The notes: generated by a model from the sequence alone, not told the origin. Counted from the first letter of the stretch, positions 3,199-60,300 are shown. The stretch: DNA of 64,000 bases from an uncultured Spirochaetota bacterium (GCA_964525675.1 CAZGJW010000002.1:7093-71092); one strand, 5' to 3'. Numbers and translations: made by a program.

Positions 3199-3357
3199 TT
3201 ATGGTTTTATCCATTAGAATTCTGGCATTTTGTACCAGAATTTCGAATACAAATGACTATATTATACTACATTGCCGTAATATTACATACTTTAGGTAAA
3301 AACCATTAGGTAAGTGATAATTTTCAACTTCTAAGATTGGCAAGTTTACTTACCTAT
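3199..3357 (-). mobile_element. R1 repeat copy A (159 nt, MITE-like, subfamily 1)
   Basis: The reverse complement reads ATAGGTAAGTAAACTT...CACTTACCTAATGGTTTTTACC...TTCTGGTACAAAATGCCAGAA...GGATAAAACCATAA. It is alignable end to end with copies at 18753, 35561, 52001 and 60141. Confidence 0.85.
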
Positions 3358-3407: not shown

Positions 3408-4421
3408 ATGGCATCGTTAAAAACATCGTATATGGGAATGGAGTTGAAAAACCCGGTTATTGCGGGTGCTAGCAGTATGACCATGAATCTTGGCAGTATC
3501 AAAAAAATAGAGGAGGCGGGGGCAGGAGCCCTTGTGATCGCTTCTCTTTTCGAGGAGCAGATACAGCTCGAACAGATGAAGCTTGAGGAGGAGCTCGAGA
3601 AGATCAAGTACAGAAATCCGGAGATGATTGAAATATTTCCCGACCTCGAGCACGCAGGGCCGCAGGAGCATCTATTGTGGGTCAGAAAGGCGAAGGAGAG
3701 CGTCGCAATTCCGGTCATTGCGAGTCTCAATGCGGTAAACCGTGAAACATGGGTCGAGTACGCCGCGCTGCTCGAGCAGACGGGTGTGGACGGTCTCGAG
3801 CTCAATTTCTTCGCAACACAGAGTGAGTTCGACAGGGCAGGGGTGGAGATAGAGGATGAACAGGTTGCCATCCTGAAAGAGATAAAGAAAAAGGTCAAAG
3901 TTCCAATTAGCGTGAAACTGAGTATTTACTATTCGAACCCCCTCCACATTATTAAAAAGCTCGACGAGGCAGGTGTAAACGGTTTCGTTCTCTTTAACAG
4001 GTTTTTTCAGCCCGATATCAATATCGATGAAGAAAAAAACATCTCCCCATTTAATTTCAGCCATGAAACGGACTACCGCCTGCCGCTCCGCTACACAGGG
4101 ATCCTGTTCGGAAATATCGAGGCCAGCATCTGCAGCAGCAGGGGGATACTGCACGGCAGGGAAGTAATAAAGATGATTCTTGCAGGCGCGGACTGCATAC
4201 AGTGCGTAAGCACGCTGTTTATAAACAAGGTCGATTATATAAAGAGCATGCTTTCGGATATCGAGAAATGGATGGACAAGAAGGGATATGTCGACCTTGC
4301 GAGTTTCAGAGGCAAAATGAGCAGGAAGAACAGCAGCGACCCGTGGACCTACACACGCGCCCAATACGTGAAGCTGCTCGTAAAGCCGGAGCAGTTCCTC
4401 AGGGATGTGAAAACTGAATAG
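3408..4421 (+). CDS. dihydroorotate dehydrogenase-like (PyrD/PreA-fold TIM-barrel flavoprotein) protein
   Basis: The 337-aa ORF has a GGGGAG SD upstream. The N-terminus MELKNPVIAGAS and the later GADCIQ... are typical of class-1 DHOD-like proteins. Confidence 0.7.
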   Translation: MASLKTSYMGMELKNPVIAGASSMTMNLGSIKKIEEAGAGALVIASLFEEQIQLEQMKLEEELEKIKYRNPEMIEIFPDLEHAGPQEHLLWVRKAKESVAIPVIASLNAVNRETWVEYAALLEQTGVDGLELNFFATQSEFDRAGVEIEDEQVAILKEIKKKVKVPISVKLSIYYSNPLHIIKKLDEAGVNGFVLFNRFFQPDINIDEEKNISPFNFSHETDYRLPLRYTGILFGNIEASICSSRGILHGREVIKMILAGADCIQCVSTLFINKVDYIKSMLSDIEKWMDKKGYVDLASFRGKMSRKNSSDPWTYTRAQYVKLLVKPEQFLRDVKTE

Positions 4422-4865: not shown

Positions 4866-6062
4866 ATGTCTAGGAAAATGAAACTGCTCACCATTGTTAC
4901 AGCGGTTGTTATTGTGCTTGGTTGTTTTGCTGTGTATCAACAGCAGGATAGTCTGACGCTGGCTGCAGCAAAAAAGGGACCGAAGAAGATCACCATTGGA
5001 TGGACTCCCCCGGATATAACGGGAGTGTTTAAGACAGCAACAGACTATTTCGAGAAAGCGGCTGAGGATGCAGTTCGCCACGGCATTGATGTGGAGGTGA
5101 TATCTCAATCACCCGCCACACATGTAGCATTTGCCGATCAGGTTGCGATTATTGAAGATTACGTCCAGAGGAAGGTGGATGTGATCGCAATATCTCCTAT
5201 TGAAGTCGAGGTGATAAAACCTGCAGTAAAGAAGGCCAATGAGGCGGGTATCCCCGTTATTATCGTCAATCTGCTTGAGCCGATACCAGGTGTTAAGGTT
5301 GCATCCTACATCGGCTTTGATAATACGGATGCCGGAAGGATCTCCGCGTATGCTCTTCTTGACTATTTCGGTGGACCTGGTGTTCTGGGAAAGGGAAAGA
5401 AAGTTGATGTTGACCGCAACACCTACCTTGACCTTGCGTGGTGGAAGGACCTCTACAAGGATGTTGATCCGAATACGGCAGATATCAAGGCGCGTGTTGC
5501 CATTATCGAGGGTATTGCAGGTGGATTTTTCTCAACTGCGCGTTTGAACGGATTCCATGAAGTGGTTGATCCCTTCCCGGGTATAACAATAGTGGGAACG
5601 CTGCCTGCAGACTGGAACAGGGAAAAGGGCATTAAAGCTGCTGAGGATTTTCTCACTTCAAATCCTTCAGGAACACTCGATGCAATCTGGGCCGCATCAA
5701 ACGAAGTGGGACTTGGTGCAATGCTGGCATGTGAATCTGCTGGAAGGCTAGAAAAGGCCGGAGAGGGTGATATCGGCGATCATTATGTTGCTATATTTAC
5801 AAACGATGTGACACCTGAATCAGCAGACCGTGTTGCCGAGGGAAAAATGGTCGCGGAGACTCACCACGGCTTTCCTGAATGGGGATGGTACGGGACTGAA
5901 TTCGCCGTGACACTTGCGATGGGCGGAAAGGTACCATATATCTTTGATATACGGCCGCGGACAATGTACAAAGAAAATGCGCGTTTGTTCTATCCCACCC
6001 CTGCTCTTGATCCGATCGACTGGGAGACAATAAAAAAAGGAGGCTCTCCCAGGGTTAAGTAA
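4866..6062 (+). CDS. sugar ABC transporter substrate-binding protein (PBP1/RbsB-like, N-terminal anchor)
   Basis: It has an AGGAGGG SD and an N-terminal hydrophobic segment. The periplasmic-binding-protein pattern is VDVIAISPIE...GIPVIIVN. It is the first gene of an SBP-SDR-ATPase-permease operon. Confidence 0.8.
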   Translation: MSRKMKLLTIVTAVVIVLGCFAVYQQQDSLTLAAAKKGPKKITIGWTPPDITGVFKTATDYFEKAAEDAVRHGIDVEVISQSPATHVAFADQVAIIEDYVQRKVDVIAISPIEVEVIKPAVKKANEAGIPVIIVNLLEPIPGVKVASYIGFDNTDAGRISAYALLDYFGGPGVLGKGKKVDVDRNTYLDLAWWKDLYKDVDPNTADIKARVAIIEGIAGGFFSTARLNGFHEVVDPFPGITIVGTLPADWNREKGIKAAEDFLTSNPSGTLDAIWAASNEVGLGAMLACESAGRLEKAGEGDIGDHYVAIFTNDVTPESADRVAEGKMVAETHHGFPEWGWYGTEFAVTLAMGGKVPYIFDIRPRTMYKENARLFYPTPALDPIDWETIKKGGSPRVK

Positions 6063-6137: not shown

Positions 6138-6899
6138 ATGAAACTGGCGAATAAAGTGGCCGTCATTACAGGTGCAGGTTCAGGTATCGGACAAACAACC
6201 GCGTTATTATTTGCAAAAGAGGGAGCAAAGGTGGTGGTTGCTGACCTTAATGTAAATGGAGGGACTAAAACTGTAGACTTGATAAAGAAGGCTGAAGGCA
6301 ACGCCGCTCTTATATTGACTGATGTTTCCGATGTATCCAGTGTGAAGAAGATGGTAAAGAGCACTGTTGACATGCACGGAGGTCTCGATATACTTATAAA
6401 TGTCGCAGGTGTATTTGCTGAGGGAGATGTGGTAAGCACATCGGAGGATGACTGGGACCGCGTGCTTGGCGTAAATCTCTCAGGCATATATCTGTGCATG
6501 AAATACTGTATACCGGTAATGATGAAAAACGGTGGGGGAGTTATTGTTAACGTTGCCTCTGAAGCGGGTCTTGTGGCAATAGCCAATCAGGTCGCATATA
6601 ATGTATCAAAAAGCGGTGTCATTGCTCTGACAAGAAGTGCGGCGATTGATTTTGTTGATAAAAATATTCGGGTAAATTGCATCTGTCCGGGAAGGGTTTT
6701 GACCCCGCTTGTGAAAAAGGTTATTAATGAATCAAAAAACCCGGATAGTACAAGGCGCCTCCTTTCTGAAGACCGTCCGTTAAAGAGAATGGGAAAACCG
6801 GAAGAGATTGCAGCAGGAATACTGTTTTTAGCATCCGATGAGGTGAAGTATGCAGTCGGGACGGTTCTTACAATAGATGGAGGTTATACGGTTCGCTAA
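6138..6899 (+). CDS. SDR family oxidoreductase
   Basis: It carries TGAGSGIG, NVAG and the YNVSKSG (YxxxK) motif. Confidence 0.85.
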   Translation: MKLANKVAVITGAGSGIGQTTALLFAKEGAKVVVADLNVNGGTKTVDLIKKAEGNAALILTDVSDVSSVKKMVKSTVDMHGGLDILINVAGVFAEGDVVSTSEDDWDRVLGVNLSGIYLCMKYCIPVMMKNGGGVIVNVASEAGLVAIANQVAYNVSKSGVIALTRSAAIDFVDKNIRVNCICPGRVLTPLVKKVINESKNPDSTRRLLSEDRPLKRMGKPEEIAAGILFLASDEVKYAVGTVLTIDGGYTVR

Positions 6900-9583: not shown

Positions 9584-9918
9584 CAATTAGCGTGAAACTG
9601 AGTATTTACTATTCGAACCCTCTTCACTTTATTAAAAAGCTCGACGGTACCGGCGTAAACGGTTTCGTGCTCTTCAACCGGTTTTTTCAGCCGGATATCG
9701 ATATCGATGAAGAAAAAAATATCTTCCCATTTAATTTCAGCCATGAAACAGACTACCGCCTGCCGTTCCGCTACGCAGGGCCCCTGTTCGGAAATATCAG
9801 GGGCAGCATCTGCAGCAGCAGGGGTATGCTGCACGGCAGGGACGCAATTAAAATGATACTCGCAGGCGCGGATTGCATACTGCAATTCTTCACGTTGCAC
9901 AAAAAATTTTGCGTTTAA
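9584..9918 (+). pseudogene. internal fragment of a DHOD-like gene (paralog remnant)
   Basis: Positions 9584-9880 align without gaps to 3904-4200 of the intact gene, with 265/297 identical by my count. There is no N-terminal half, and the tail diverges and then stops. Confidence 0.85.
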
Positions 9919-18361: not shown

Positions 18362-19261
18362 ATGAAGCTAGATGGCAAGGTGGCATTGGTTACGGGCGCT
18401 GCTCAGGGTATTGGGGAAGCTACGGCGCGTGTATTTGGTGCAGAAGGTGCATATGTGATTGCGGTTGATATTAATGGTGATAAAGTAAGCCAAAACGTTG
18501 AGTACATGAAACAAAAAGGGTATCTGGCTGAAATGATGCAAATCGATGTTTCAGATATAGATGATATTCACCGGTCTATTAGTAAAATAGTGGAAAGTCA
18601 TCGACGCATCGACATTCTCATCAACATTGCAGGGATATTTTCAAAAACCCCTATACTTAAAATTACTGAAGATGAATGGGATATGGTATTTAGTGTTAAC
18701 CTTAAAGGCACTTTTTTTCTTTCAAAAGAGGTTCTGGTAACAATGATTAAAAATAGGCAAGTTAACTTTCAAACTTAAAAGGTGCAAACCAACACCTGCC
18801 TAATGGTTTTTACCTCTAGAATGTAATTACAAGTAATTGTAACAGTATAGATAGTCAGCTTTGCATGAAATTCTGGTACAAAAAACCGTAATTTTAATGG
18901 ATAAAACCATAAGTATGGAAAAATTGTAAATGTATCCTCGCTTTCTGCAAAGAGGGGGGGAGTAACTTCCGGTATACATTACGGTGCCTCAAAGGCGGGG
19001 GTAATCTCAGTTACAAAATATTTAGCCAAGTTTAGTGCTCCTTATAACATCAATGTGAATGCGGTTGTTCCTGGCTTTGTTGACACACCAATGTTCAGGA
19101 GAAATGTTGATGCGATAGAGAACGTAATTAAATCGATCCCGATTGGTCGTGTTGCAAGGCCTGAAGAGGTCGCGAAAGTGATTATGTTCCTCGCATCTGA
19201 CGATGCCAGTTACATTACTGGTGAAATATTGGATGTAAATGGTGGAATTCTGATGGATTAA
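18362..19261 (+). pseudogene. FabG-like SDR oxidoreductase interrupted by R1 copy B
   Basis: The N-terminal half (TGAAQGIG...NIAG...MIKN) stops at a TAA inside the insert. The same frame resumes as (K)YGKIVNVSSLSAKRGG...YGASKAG...PGFVDTPM after the insert. Confidence 0.9.
18753..18912 (+). mobile_element. R1 repeat copy B (160 nt, subfamily 2) inserted in the SDR gene
   Basis: It runs ATAGGCAAGTTAAC...GGATAAAACCATAA. Removing 156 bp (the core plus one ATA) restores ATG ATT AAA AAT AAG TAT GGA AAA = MIKNKYGK. Confidence 0.9.
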
Positions 19262-19483
19262 TTGACCTTATACTATAAATGCGGTCCTGATCATTTTATT
19301 ATAATAAAATTGGGAAGATTGGGAGGAAAATCAATATTAATATGATATAAAAGGGTGAGATATTATATAATAAACAGCATTGTTGAATAACTCGTATATA
19401 GAGATTTTTGGATTAAAGAAATCGTTAAAATAATACAAAGCACGTTTTAGTTTGGATAATCACTATTACGCGAGGTAATTACG

Positions 19484-20335
19484 TTGAAAGTGAAGCCCTG
19501 GTTGTTGTTTCTACCCTCACTTGCATTGGTGATGTTCAATGCTTTTATCCCTACAGTTACTGTTATTTCCTATTCTTTGCACTACTATTTTCCATCAGTC
19601 CCGCCAGAGTATCTGGGTCTTGAACAATATCGGAGACTTTTAAGCGATCCGAATTTTCTCACTGCATTGTACAGGGGATTGCTTTTCTCTTTTGAATGTC
19701 TTGCTATCGAGGTGCCCCTTGGTCTCGCTATAGCAATGGTTCTTCCAAAAAAAGGAGTATTCGGAGGGGCTGCTCTTGCTGTTATCGCGATTCCACTGGT
19801 TATTCCCTGGATGACTGTCGGCCTCATGTGGAAATTGATGACTCAGCAGGTTGTTGGACCGATTCCATTTTTTCTTTCGAAATTGGGTATTGAGTTTGAT
19901 ATGTCCAGGCCGGTGCATGCTTTTCAAACCATTGTACTCATGGATGTCTGGCACTGGACTCCTCTCATTATTCTACTTATGTCCGCTGGATTGTCAGCAT
20001 TACCGGAAGAATATTACGAGGCGGCGAAAATTGATGGGGCTCGGGCCGGAAGAATTTTCAGGTATGTGACTTTGCCAGGGCTTAAATCTCCGCTTCTTGT
20101 TTTGCTTCTCCTGAGATTTATTGACACATTCAAGATATACGATGAAGTATGGGTGCTCACATCCGGTGGCCCGGGTAATGCTACCACTTTTCTCAGTATT
20201 TTTACCGTGAGGTTGGGAATTGGAGCTTTCAATTTAGGCTATGGTTCAGCAGTATCATTAACATTTCTATATGTAGTGTTGACCTTCAGTTTTGTTTTGA
20301 TGGTAGTTATGACCAAGGGGAGGGGGGTAAAATAG
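19484..20335 (+). CDS. carbohydrate ABC transporter permease (MalF/UgpA type)
   Basis: It has the EAA loop EYYEAAKIDGARAGRIFRYVTLPG and ~6 TM segments. The start is TTG/GTG and uncertain by a few codons. Confidence 0.85.
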   Translation: MKVKPWLLFLPSLALVMFNAFIPTVTVISYSLHYYFPSVPPEYLGLEQYRRLLSDPNFLTALYRGLLFSFECLAIEVPLGLAIAMVLPKKGVFGGAALAVIAIPLVIPWMTVGLMWKLMTQQVVGPIPFFLSKLGIEFDMSRPVHAFQTIVLMDVWHWTPLIILLMSAGLSALPEEYYEAAKIDGARAGRIFRYVTLPGLKSPLLVLLLLRFIDTFKIYDEVWVLTSGGPGNATTFLSIFTVRLGIGAFNLGYGSAVSLTFLYVVLTFSFVLMVVMTKGRGVK

Positions 20336-20337
20336 AC

Positions 20338-21147
20338 ATGAAAGAGCGGAACAAGCGGATTATCTTTACGATCATTATCTGTCTTTATCTTATCTTTACT
20401 CTCTTTCCTTTCTACTGGATGCTTAACACAGCTTTCAAGCACAAGGCTGAAGTTACGAGGGAACTTACCTTTTATCCACACCACTTTACGTTGGATTCTT
20501 TTAAACAGGTAATTAATAAACCCCTCTATAGAAGGGCACTCCTGAATTCGCTGTCAATTGCCTTTGGATCAGTTATACTCTGCTTGTCTGTTGGAATCTG
20601 GGCAGCATATGCATTCTCCCGTTATAGATTCCTGGGGGATAAGCATTTCTTCTTCTGGTTGATTACGAATCGTATGGCTCCTCCTGCGGTATTCGTTATT
20701 CCGTATTTTATGATATATTCCACGATCGGACTTTATGATACGCGTATAGGAGTAATATTGTCTCATACCCTGTTTAATTTACCGCTTACCATTTGGTTGC
20801 TTGTAGGGTTTATGAATGCCGTACCGACTGACCTTGATGAGGCTGCATTTGTTGATGGCTACACCTTCGTTGGTTATTTTAGAAAGATTTTTTTTCCAGT
20901 GATTGCACCGGGTATCGGTGTTACGGCTTTTTTTCTTTTTATATTCTCCTGGTCAGAAATGTTGCTTGGTTCAGTGCTTACTGCTTCATCAGCTAAGCCT
21001 GTAACAGTCGCTTTACTGCAAAATGTATCCATGTTTGGTGTCGAATGGGGACTGATCGCCGCTGTTTCCATATTTGCGGTATTACCTGGAATAGTGGCAG
21101 TTGCTTTTGTAAGAAAATATATCGCGAGAGGTTTCCTTGTTGGGTAA
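20338..21147 (+). CDS. carbohydrate ABC transporter permease (MalG/UgpE type)
   Basis: It has the EAA loop DLDEAAFVDGYTFVGYFRKIFFP. Confidence 0.85.
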   Translation: MKERNKRIIFTIIICLYLIFTLFPFYWMLNTAFKHKAEVTRELTFYPHHFTLDSFKQVINKPLYRRALLNSLSIAFGSVILCLSVGIWAAYAFSRYRFLGDKHFFFWLITNRMAPPAVFVIPYFMIYSTIGLYDTRIGVILSHTLFNLPLTIWLLVGFMNAVPTDLDEAAFVDGYTFVGYFRKIFFPVIAPGIGVTAFFLFIFSWSEMLLGSVLTASSAKPVTVALLQNVSMFGVEWGLIAAVSIFAVLPGIVAVAFVRKYIARGFLVG

Positions 21148-21158
21148 GGAGGTTAAGT

Positions 21159-21437
21159 TTGTTGCAAAATGTTTCTACAATTGTAAAAGGTGCTTTGTCT
21201 GCCGGTATAGGGGTAACGGCAATGTTGAGTGTTCTTGCAATTTTTGTCGGTGAGACCGAGCTAAGACGGGGATTTTTACCCTGGCCAACAACATGGGGAG
21301 ATCGGTTCTTTATTTCCCTGCTCATATTATTCCTCATTGGGTTACTATGGTTGAAGTTCATTGAACCCCTGCTTCCAATTTACGGTGCCTTGATTCTGAG
21401 TTTAATAATTGGATTTTTCATCGTAAAGTATGGTTAG
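21159..21437 (+). CDS. small hydrophobic protein (~92 aa, about 3 TM) within the ABC operon
   Basis: AAGGAGG at 21146-21152 precedes TTG 21159. The hydrophobic segments are AGIGVTAMLSVLAIFVG, FFISLLILFLIGLLWL and LILSLIIGFFIV. No family was recognised. Confidence 0.4.
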   Translation: MLQNVSTIVKGALSAGIGVTAMLSVLAIFVGETELRRGFLPWPTTWGDRFFISLLILFLIGLLWLKFIEPLLPIYGALILSLIIGFFIVKYG

Positions 21438-21584
21438 AAGTATGGCTAAATGATGAGCACATGGTTTTTTGCCTGTGAGGGTGGGGTAAGGAAAATATTC
21501 TCGCATATATACTCAATGAAGGGAGGTGAAAATACGAAGTAGCATATTCACATTTAGAGTAAAAAACGTCAGGAGGAAAAACAT

Positions 21585-35560: not shown

Positions 35561-35741
35561 ATAGGTAAGTAAACTTGTCAATTTTAGAAGTTGAAAATTA
35601 TCACTTACCTAATGGTTTTTACCAATAGTATGTAATATTATGGCAATGTAGTATAATTTAGTCATTTGTATTCGAAATTCTGGTACAAAAGGAAAAGATA
35701 TCACTTCGCTAGACCAGAATTCTAAATAGATAAAACCATAA
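35561..35741 (+). mobile_element. R1 repeat copy C (181 nt, subfamily 1, enlarged 3' hairpin loop)
   Basis: It runs ATAGGTAAGTAAACTT...GATAAAACCATAA. The TTCTGGT...ACCAGAA hairpin has a 28-nt loop. It lies between the inverted 18-mers at 35505-35522 and 35786-35803. Confidence 0.85.
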
Positions 35742-35820: not shown

Positions 35821-36828
35821 ATGAAGGAGAGATCATTTAGCGGTATTCAACCGTCGGGAGTCATACATATCGGTAATTATCTCGGCGCAATCAAAAACTG
35901 GGTTGAACTTATCGAAAATTATGAGTGCATCTTCTGTGTCGTCGATTACCACGCCATTACCATTGAGTATGAACCGCCGGAACTGAGAGAAAGGATTATC
36001 GAAGCGGCAAAAACACTTATCGCATCCGGTATAGATCCTGACCGGTGCACCCTGTTCGTTCAGTCGGAAGTTCCCGAGCATACTGAGCTGACATGGATTC
36101 TGAGTTCTATAGCAACGATTGCCGAGCTCGAGAGAATGACCCAATTCAAGGATAAGAAACTGCAGCATTCCGACAATATCAATACCGGCCTGCTAACCTA
36201 CCCGGTTTTAATGGCGAGTGACATCATTGTGTACAAGGCCCAGGTTGTACCTGTGGGTGACGACCAGCGTCAACACCTCGAACTTACCCGGGAGATTGTA
36301 CGGCGGTTCAACGGTAAGTTCGGCGACACTTTCCCGGAACCGAAAACTCTTTTGGGAGAGGCTCCCCGCATCAAGGGGCTGGACGGCAGCGCGAAGATGA
36401 GCAAGAGCCTCAATAACTATATTGCGCTTATTGAGGAAGAGGATGTTCTGTGGGAAAAGCTGAGAACAGCGGTTACCGATCCCGCGCGAATCAGGCGATC
36501 AGACCCGGGCGACCCACACATCTGTAATATATTTTCCCTGCATCGGTATTTCTCAACAGATGAGGAGATCGGTTACATCGAGAAGGGATGTAAAACGGCG
36601 GGGATCGGATGCATTGAATGCAAGAAAATACTTGCAAAAAATATTAACAACATAATTGCTCCAATAAGGGAAAAGAAGAAGGAGCTTGACAGAAATACCA
36701 CATATGTGCTGGATGTGCTTGAGGAGGGACGGAAGCACTGCAGCTCGATCGCATGTAATACCATGAACGAAGTAAGGGAAAAAATCGGGGTGAATTTCCG
36801 CCGGGATCTTCTCAGTAACCTAAAATAA
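35821..36828 (+). CDS. trpS: tryptophan--tRNA ligase
   Basis: It has the HIGH-type HIGNYLGA, KMSKS and a typical class-I TrpRS layout. Length is 335 aa. Confidence 0.95.
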   Translation: MKERSFSGIQPSGVIHIGNYLGAIKNWVELIENYECIFCVVDYHAITIEYEPPELRERIIEAAKTLIASGIDPDRCTLFVQSEVPEHTELTWILSSIATIAELERMTQFKDKKLQHSDNINTGLLTYPVLMASDIIVYKAQVVPVGDDQRQHLELTREIVRRFNGKFGDTFPEPKTLLGEAPRIKGLDGSAKMSKSLNNYIALIEEEDVLWEKLRTAVTDPARIRRSDPGDPHICNIFSLHRYFSTDEEIGYIEKGCKTAGIGCIECKKILAKNINNIIAPIREKKKELDRNTTYVLDVLEEGRKHCSSIACNTMNEVREKIGVNFRRDLLSNLK

Positions 36829-36933
36829 ATTATCTTTGATACCCAGTCCTGCCAAGGATCGGTCCCAAGGGGACGTAATCCGCCGCGAAGTGGTTTTTCC
36901 CAGGGGGACTTTCCCCAGGGGGACATACGCCAC
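36808..36933 (+). repeat. R2 repeat, copy a (overlaps the last 7 codons of trpS)
   Basis: CTTCTCAGTAACCTAAAATAAATTATCTTTGATACCCAGTCC...CCCAGGGGGAC x2...GGGACATACGCCAC is homologous, with indels, to 49020-49159. Confidence 0.75.
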
Positions 36934-37326: not shown

Positions 37327-37367
37327 ATAGGCAAGCGAGCTTGCAAACATAAAGGGTTTAAACCAAA
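37327..37367 (+). repeat. R1 truncated copy F (5' hairpin module only)
   Basis: ATAGGCAAGCGAGCTTGCAAACATAAAGGGTTTAAACCAA aligns to the first ~40 nt of copies B and D. It lacks the CACTTGCCTAATGG arm and everything 3' of it. Confidence 0.6.
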
Positions 37368-48956: not shown

Positions 48957-49159
48957 CCTCTTCTAAGTAACTTCTCACGAAGTTACTTCATGATATTCGG
49001 TCCCGAAGTGGCATACGCCTCTTCTAAGTAACTTCAAATAAATTATCTTTGATACCCAGTCCCGGGAGGATGTATCCTGCCAAGAATCGGACGCGAAGCG
49101 ACATATCCCGCCAGGGACATATCCCGCCAGGGACATATCCTTACAGGGACATACGCCAC
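48957..49159 (+). repeat. R2 repeat, copy b, with an extra 61-bp leading unit and four 16-bp tandem units
   Basis: CCTCTTCTAAGTAACTTC occurs at 48957 and 49018. A 10-bp perfect hairpin AAGTAACTTC-tcac-GAAGTTACTT lies at 48965-48988. AAATAAATTATCTTTGATACCCAGTCC is shared with 36824-36850. The 16-mers (c)AGGGACATATCCCGC span 49096-49159. Confidence 0.8.
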
Positions 49160-52000: not shown

Positions 52001-52158
52001 ATAGGCAAGTGAACTTCCAAACGTAAAAGGTTCAAATCGACACTTGCCTAATGGTTTTTACCTATAGAATGCAATGATAGGTAATTGTAACATAATAAGT
52101 CAGTTGAGCATAAAAATTCTGGTACAAAAAACCAGAATTTTAATGGATAAAACCATAA
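52001..52158 (+). mobile_element. R1 repeat copy D (158 nt, subfamily 2)
   Basis: It runs ATAGGCAAGTGAACTTCC...CACTTGCCTAATGGTTTTTACC...TTCTGGTACAAAAAACCAGAA...GGATAAAACCATAA. It ends 12 nt before ATG 52171. Confidence 0.85.
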
Positions 52159-60140: not shown

Positions 60141-60300
60141 TTATGATTTTATCCATTAAAATTACGGTTTTTTGTACCAGAATTTCATGCAAAGCTGACT
60201 ATCTATACTGTTACAATTACTTGTAATTACATTCTAGAGGTAAAAACCATTAGGCAAGTGCCGGTTTTAATTGTTAAAGTTTGGAAGTTCACTTGCCTAT
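60141..60300 (-). mobile_element. R1 repeat copy E (160 nt, subfamily 2)
   Basis: The reverse complement differs from copy B at only 2 of the last 120 nt but at 10 of 30 positions in the 5' hairpin loop. Confidence 0.85.

Follow-up and report, generated by a model that had tools for sequence, protein, structure and literature searches.

RUP of Streptococcus pneumoniae and the Correia elements of Neisseria are TA-inserting MITE families with discrete or mosaic subtypes, and the Tn3-derived TIMEs are reportedly mosaic. The repeat described here was examined in a 64-kb (64,000-nucleotide) window, the whole stretch of DNA analysed, from an uncultured Spirochaetota bacterium. It resembles these families in its size class (~100–250 nt), in being non-coding, present in many copies and mostly intergenic, in its TA-containing duplication, and in having subfamilies of internal modules and chimeras between them. 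It differs from them at its ends and in its orientation: RUP, Correia elements and TIMEs are bounded by clear terminal inverted repeats and can insert either way round, whereas the ends of the present repeat share GG/CC only and insertion occurs in one orientation. A further difference is that no parent insertion sequence was found in the collected loci or the window. The lack of terminal inverted repeats and the strict insertion orientation place the repeat outside the usual MITE definition.

The PATEs of the IS200/IS605 group and the REP/REPIN sequences, which HUH Y1 transposases move, offer a second comparison. Like them, the present repeat lacks terminal inverted repeats, has hairpins at or near its ends, inserts in one orientation next to a motif confined to the left flank (A-rich, then ATA) and needs no true duplication; oriented insertion 3' of a short conserved target without inverted repeats, as in IS200/IS605-type elements, was thus found here. 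A possible difference lies in its orientation, which showed no significant bias either relative to local GC skew (44:32, p = 0.21, a noisy proxy on 10-kb pieces) or relative to gene direction (37:26). Unlike theirs, its end hairpins are dissimilar, and the 5' hairpin, H1, starts at the first base of the element and not some bases inside. No gene for TnpA, RAYT or TnpB was seen in the loci and the stretch examined.

The IS110/IS1111 elements, with their bridge RNAs and seekRNAs, share with the present repeat an oriented insertion, the absence of terminal inverted repeats, a short junction core (here TA or ATA) and the size of a structured RNA. Unlike in the bridge-RNA and seekRNA systems, the loop allele of the present repeat does not covary with the target, and in place of the 11–14-nt guided site of IS110 there is a low-information target consisting of an A-run and ATA. 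No DEDD (RuvC-like) recombinase was found among the 29 window ORFs compared with Pfam (three without a match), and the loci contain no repeated IS-like DNA.

The window contains five full copies, A to E. Copy A (3199–3357, minus strand) belongs to the alpha lineage and has a compensated stem, TAGGTAAGT/ACTTACCTA. Copy C (35561–35741, plus strand) is also of the alpha lineage, with an insert of ~22 nt in its 3' hairpin loop and an empty allele of its site in the contig L033. Copy D (52001–52158, plus strand) carries the delta (consensus-like) H1 allele, and copy E (60141–60300, minus strand; H1 tip at 60260–60290) is of the beta lineage, with H1 type 3, body type 2 and tail type 2. Four H1-tip alleles are present together within this one stretch. 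A weak match to the 5' half of H1, ATAGGCAAGCGAGCTTGCAAACATAAAGGGTTTAAACC (37327–37365, plus strand; nhmmer E = 0.006), lies just upstream of a MurD-like ligase gene and may be a decayed solo remnant or a chance match.

Copy B (18753–18912, plus strand) consists of an ATA (18753–18755), the mobile unit GG...CC (18756–18908) and a second ATA (18909–18911), followed by an A of the flank. The basal stem of H1 has a 5' strand, TAGGCAAGT (18754–18762), that takes in the TA of the duplicated ATA, and a 3' strand, ACCTGCCTA (18794–18802), with an A·C mismatch at pair 8/44 that is found in B and in the gamma lineage. The apical part between these strands (18763–18793, one base more than the stretch reported by the first-pass annotation) carries the gamma-prime allele. 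The 3' strand runs into an invariant core, CCTAATGGTTTTTACCT (18799–18815), which is the interval with the recombination breakpoint described below and has an entropy of 0 over alignment columns 51–60. An internal pairing segment, ACCTGCC-TAA-TGGTTTT in B (18795–18811) and ACTTGCC-TAA-TGGTTTT in the family consensus, is made up of the H1 3' strand (18795–18801) and the core and is complementary to both ends of the element. Further downstream, a second conserved core, AAATTCTGGTACAAAA (18868–18883), provides the 5' strand and loop of a small predicted hairpin, and the conserved 3' end, AATGGATAAAACCATA (18896–18911), is predicted to pair with ATGGTTTT of the core.

This copy splits a short-chain dehydrogenase (SDR) gene on the plus strand into a 5' part (18362–18755) and a 3' part (18912–19261, the end being deduced from the 247-aa rejoined length). 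The insertion lies at codon 131, between …MIKN and KYGK…, and removal of 156 nt restores an intact protein of 247 aa that matches residues 1–235 of the 236 in adh_short_C2 in one stretch. The same SDR-disrupting insertion is present in the independent contig L018. B looks like a recent gene-disrupting insertion. The family is otherwise mostly intergenic: no long open frame extends across 96 of its 100 insertions, B being the clear exception.

Other repeats also occur in the window. An unrelated conserved intergenic repeat at 36807–36930 and 49020–49153 (also at L005 25–100 and L012 1091–1173) starts with TTGATACCCAGTCC...TCCTGCCAAGGATCGG and continues in tandem units of 15–16 nt, either two copies of TTTCCCCAGGGGGAC or 3.4 copies of GACATATCCCGCCAGG; it is common to both Spirochaetota MAGs mentioned below and has no Rfam match. 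A direct repeat of 297 nt, with copies at 3904–4200 and 9584–9880 that are 5.7 kb apart and 89% identical, is probably a duplicated gene fragment, since it overlaps both a short ORF and one with a DHO_dh/Dus-like match.

To sample the family, a pattern of two invariant blocks was run against a species-representative genome collection and gave 15 exact matches, all in two uncultured Spirochaetota MAGs, and a similar pattern gave 96 stretches on contigs of sediment metagenomes. A profile search over the collected DNA returned 149 matches, of which 116 were full length, corresponding to 100 distinct insertion loci as judged by their flanks. These copies are 156–270 nt long, and no ORF was seen in the ~160-nt element, which is small, non-coding and multi-copy as MITEs are. 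The repeat family is found so far only in uncultured Spirochaetota. Copy D gave no match by BLAST against plasmid and phage collections, nor did a pattern scan of viral contigs; Rfam gave no gathering-level match in the stretch, and B and one long-form copy had only chance-level matches (E of at least 0.65). Given the lack of an Rfam match and its absence from plasmid, phage and viral collections, the family appears to be undescribed.

The alignment of the 100 loci resolves the element into four near-invariant blocks, namely the basal 9-bp stem of H1, CCTAATGGTTTTTACC, AAATTCTGGTACAAAA and the AATGGATAAAACCATA end, separated by three variable modules (H1 tip, body and tail). Because alignment gaps left RNAalifold with only a fragment of the long-range stem when diverse copies were aligned with MAFFT, base pairs were counted by anchoring on the conserved blocks. 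The claim of the first-pass annotation that a covarying stem frames the tip was borne out by one compensated pair, 6/46, which is C-G in 62 loci, T-A in 30 and T-G in 3. Many G-T pairs and a few double changes occur in the small 3' hairpin, and strand-specific evidence is mixed.

Some copies depart from this plan in length. Long forms of ~235–270 nt (L006 2165–2397, L012 6808–7058, L030 12733–13001, L083, two copies in L088, L100 and L108) carry in the H1 tip a GC-rich insert of ~73 nt, with GGGCTCG...CGAGCCC and a CGGCC-GAA-GGCCG hairpin with compensatory changes, and in some of them the body and the 3' hairpin loop contain additional inserts. By blastn-short, these insert modules occur inside this repeat family only. 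A set of gamma copies (for example L017 1961–2146, L028, L042 11425–11595, L097, L105, L109 and L111) has a duplicated 3' end, …GGATAAAACCTTAATGGATAAAACCATAA, that extends ~15 nt beyond the model boundary.

The comparison that had drawn attention to the H1 tip was that of copy B with the reverse complement of copy E. Both are 160 nt long and align without gaps, and they differ at positions 11, 17, 25, 28, 29, 30, 32, 33, 39, 40, 44 and 155, so that 10 of the 30 sites at positions 11–40 differ against 2 of the 120 at positions 41–160. Our recount reproduced the figures given earlier, and the 30-mers quoted for B and E and the variant quoted for D were exact. The clustering is real (Fisher's exact test, 10/30 vs 2/130, p = 6.7e-7). 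The differences are of mixed types (T/G, T/C, A/T, A/C, G/A, G/T, C/A and A/G).

Across many copies, the tip did not behave as the hypervariable stretch that it had been taken for. Mean column entropy was ~0.8 bits in loop columns 21–40 and 0.66–0.93 bits in body columns 61–110. Module typing of the 100 loci resolved every variable module into a small number of discrete alleles, stable inside a lineage, and defined four main lineages of 23, 12, 11 and 8 loci. Within lineages, the loop accumulated 0.0086 differences per site, the body 0.0100, the tail 0.0185 and the conserved blocks 0.001–0.009; between lineages, the loop differed at 6–13 of 30 positions (20–43%), the body at 15–24 of 50 (30–48%), the tail at 4–5 of 28 and each conserved block at 0–2. 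The loop is thus not hypervariable, its within-lineage rate being like that of the body. The exact loop 30-mers of B and E are alleles that recur at 10 and 11 distinct loci, respectively. The first-pass annotation had named two outcomes that would speak against its reading, a loop whose variability, over many copies, does not exceed that of the remainder, and tip variants that follow the subfamilies. On the evidence of the within- and between-lineage rates and of the discrete shared alleles, both largely apply, with the recombinants as exceptions to the second.

Ten differences within 30 nt of copies that are otherwise 98% identical could also suggest localised hypermutation or diversification of the loop, through mutagenic retrohoming of the kind seen in diversity-generating retroelements or through damage to a single-stranded loop. 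Against this, both versions of the tip are fixed alleles at about ten loci each, and the within-lineage loop rate equals that of the body; the differences between B and E are mixed and not adenine-specific, and a scan of 29 window ORFs revealed no reverse transcriptase. Hypermutation is refuted by the allele sharing, and we assign it next to no probability.

The origin of the contrast between B and E becomes apparent when B is compared with each lineage in parts. Over its first 46 nt, B agrees with the gamma lineage at 46 positions, with no mismatches and a single 15-nt gap, and with the locus L062_9241 at 46 of 46 positions without a gap. The remaining 114 nt match E, of the beta lineage, at 113 of 114 positions, and match gamma at 91 positions, with 19 mismatches and 4 gaps. 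Together, these figures identify B as a recombinant. The last gamma-specific base of B is at position 44, in H1, identity with gamma continuing to position 46, and the first beta-specific base is at position 63, which places the exchange inside the invariant core CCTAATGGTTTTTACCT. An exchange at this point, next to the stem, accounts for the sharply bounded contrast of 10/30 and 2/120. Of the two explanations that had been offered for the tip, module exchange is thus supported, at least 13 of the 100 loci, B among them, being chimeric, and the specificity or guide loop is not.

A mosaic of this kind could in principle result from the mis-joining of two repeat copies in metagenome assembly, since long identical stretches, such as the 116 nt common to B and E, can confuse short-read assemblers. 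For B, this is very improbable. A single SDR gene supplies both of its flanks, which join in frame into a full-length domain when the copy is removed, and the unique left flank leads without a break into the gamma-type H1 and on beyond the 17-nt core. L018, a separate contig, matches window 18611–21484 with 100% identity over 2874 nt, and L062_9241 is a second locus with the same H1 on the same body. The loci as a whole come from metagenome assemblies of mixed populations, and some chimeric loci other than B could be assembly artefacts.

Discordant combinations of modules were found in at least 13 of the 100 loci, including the types (2,1,1), (3,2,1), (3,3,4), (3,5,2), (4,2,1) and (4,2,2), the last being that of B. 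An alpha body carries a delta H1 in L071_8882, and a gamma body carries a beta H1 in L095. In L077, a beta H1 and a beta tail enclose a delta-type body, while L075 and L085_6673 have an alpha tail on a beta body. Some chimeras are present at more than one site. In L045_7597, a delta loop sits on an alpha stem, a combination for which a single crossover is insufficient and a short conversion patch is needed. These data show that inter-lineage chimeras exist and that the switches lie within conserved blocks, although the position of the breakpoints at conserved cores is partly forced, since a breakpoint can be placed only within blocks that are already invariant.

Two loci contain head-to-tail tandem dimers that share a single ATA at a CCATAGG junction (L045 7597–7909, minus strand, and L062 9085–9401, plus strand), and both dimers are built of module chimeras. 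From its sequence, the pair of units in L045 looks like the reciprocal products of an alpha-type and a delta-type copy. Recombination between a circular copy and a resident one would be expected to yield such dimers; alternatively, they may have arisen by independent adjacent insertions.

The mobile unit was delimited by three filled/empty pairs, in which a single ATA at the empty site corresponds to ATA-GG...CC-ATA, with ~156 nt added, at the filled one; tandem copies share one ATA. Two strains that are ~94.5% identical show reciprocal presence and absence (L005 2888–2952 / 6486–6648 and L037 1951–2109 / 5636–5700) and thereby provide clean empty-site alleles, and the site filled by copy C is empty in L033 (13217–13290). 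The filled sites have a target-site duplication in which the repeated unit may equally be TA, ATA or an end borne by the element. Upstream of the insertion, positions −5 to −1 are 58–87% A and are followed by an invariant ATA, which has one orientation relative to the element in 100 of 100 copies, while the right flank is weakly conserved (A in 74% at the base after ATA, T in 60% two bases further). The repeat is therefore mobile, with a common target for all alleles, and the strain differences in presence and absence, together with the one disrupted gene, show that the family is recently active in sediment spirochaetes. A division of the element into two separate TA-flanked foldback units, the H1 hairpin and the ATGGTTTT...AAAACCAT unit, was considered and rejected as a description of the mobile unit because empty sites lack both parts together.

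The common target bears directly on whether the tip could be a programmable guide, in the style of bridge RNA, seekRNA or omega RNA, with its alleles directing insertion to different sites. The tip lies in the loop of a hairpin whose stem is conserved and covaries, and the one-orientation insertion without terminal inverted repeats recalls the RNA-guided IS110 elements. There is also a documented precedent: the small-RNA module ssr9 hitch-hikes on the IS110-family transposase of ISPpu9, so that an RNA-only module propagates with the enzyme (PMC12288879). However, loci that share one loop 30-mer, 10 for the allele of B and 11 for that of E, are inserted at unrelated sites, and the flank logo, an A-rich left flank followed by ATA, is alike for H1 alleles 1–4. 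The longest exact matches between a loop and its own 60-nt flanks, on both strands, did not exceed 9 nt and were distributed like those of permuted pairs (19 8-mers vs 11 expected, 4 9-mers vs 1.7 expected and none longer). Mutual information between flank position and module type likewise gave no allele dependence except at positions +3, +6 and +12, where the associations are spurious and reflect the boundary shifted by the duplicated 3' end of gamma copies (AAAACCTTAATGGATAAAACCATAA). By neither measure, therefore, did the loop correlate with flanking sequence.

The resemblances between loop and flank that had been pointed out in E and B were examined individually. In E, the loop has a match of 15/16, 21–35 nt upstream of the element (AAACTTTAACAATTAA vs AAACTTT-ACAATTAA); this match exists but is weak, its score being reached by 31 of 2000 shuffled flanks (p ~0.016, uncorrected for the several flanks compared). 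In B, the best local alignments of the element with either flank do not involve the loop and are not significant (942/2000 and 208/2000 shuffles). The tip also tolerates indels of 15 nt (gamma vs gamma-prime) and ~73 nt (the long forms), its predicted apical fold differs among alleles, and neither ~1 Mb of host DNA nor the 29 scanned window ORFs (three without a Pfam match) yielded a recombinase gene. The fixed alleles shared between unrelated sites, the identical flank logos, the lack of an excess of matches and the tolerance of indels and altered folds leave the guide reading unsupported; for nearby flanks it is largely refuted, and overall we consider it highly unlikely.

The tip alleles might instead be specificity types for a trans-acting partner, such as variants of a transposase or an RNA-binding protein, with recombination reflecting selection for new combinations. 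The alleles are indeed sharply discrete and well conserved within lineages, and four of them coexist in one 64-kb stretch. Yet any tip works with any body or tail, as at least 13 chimeras attest, some at several sites; the tip can be expanded by 73 nt, its apical folds are not conserved, and no candidate partner was found. This makes a role as specificity type improbable, while the discrete tip alleles could still have some function, for example the binding of a lineage-specific factor. Taken together, the evidence makes it very probable that the element is a small non-coding mobile repeat with discrete tip alleles, that B is a recombinant of a gamma tip with a beta body and tail, and that the tip is not a guide.

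We next consider how such an element might move. No terminal inverted repeats were found at the outer ends, where the left end, GGCAAGTGAAC, and the reverse complement of the right end, GGTTTTATCCA, have only GG in common; the inverted repeats are internal and comprise the H1 stem and ATGGTTTT/AAAACCAT. In the predicted fold, both termini pair with the internal segment ACTTGCC-TAA-TGGTTTT to give H1 and an abutting long-range stem. Read in reverse complement, this segment corresponds almost exactly to the joined ends, AAAACCA-TA-GGCAAGT, and in the diverged short copies L020_2496 and L056_1524 the corresponding segment, CTTGCC-TA-TGG, is their exact reverse complement, which suggests that one central splint pairs with both termini. 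With both termini paired to this 17-nt splint, the two ends would be presented to an enzyme next to each other, whether in a folded single strand or at a circle junction. That the family moves by a mechanism undescribed for small bacterial repeats, in which the splint brings the ends together, the H1 tip is an exchangeable accessory module and dimers arise from a circular copy, is nevertheless unlikely.

The search for a mobilising enzyme covered the window and the collected loci. Among the 29 window ORFs compared with Pfam (three without a match), none was a transposase, and a scan for the end and core motifs over all loci (~1 Mb) and the window yielded only deletion derivatives and long forms and no autonomous version carrying an ORF. 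All-against-all DNA comparison of the loci found no IS-sized repeats, only syntenic strain pairs, and the multi-copy proteins in the corresponding ORF comparison were 30–50%-identical paralogues, probably transporter components, and not transposases. Promoter and terminator scans of three copies revealed no consistent site. The strict orientation and the lack of inverted repeats speak against a standard DDE element that acts on inverted-repeat ends. This leaves as candidates for transposition an HUH enzyme working on single strands, a site-specific enzyme that depends on the core, or something new.

The history of copy B that best fits these observations begins with recombination between two lineages, joining a gamma H1 tip to a beta body and tail at the invariant 17-nt core just 3' of the H1 stem. 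Ordinary recombination driven by homology, gene conversion or template switching between copies presumably brought about the exchange, and the identical cores and copies arranged head to tail in tandem may have aided it. The recombinant then transposed, L062_9241 having the same H1 and same body at another site. The H1 tip would serve as a dispensable spacer, and mobilisation would occur in trans, by an enzyme absent from the DNA examined.

The family appears to be an undescribed variant of the small non-autonomous bacterial repeats, one without inverted-repeat ends. The result is mainly corrective, in that the apparent programmable loop proves to be an allele swap between subfamilies, and it cautions against inferring guide-like variation from a handful of copies. 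Since the family lies outside the usual MITE definition, having no terminal inverted repeats and a strict orientation, the enzyme that mobilises it could be worth identifying.
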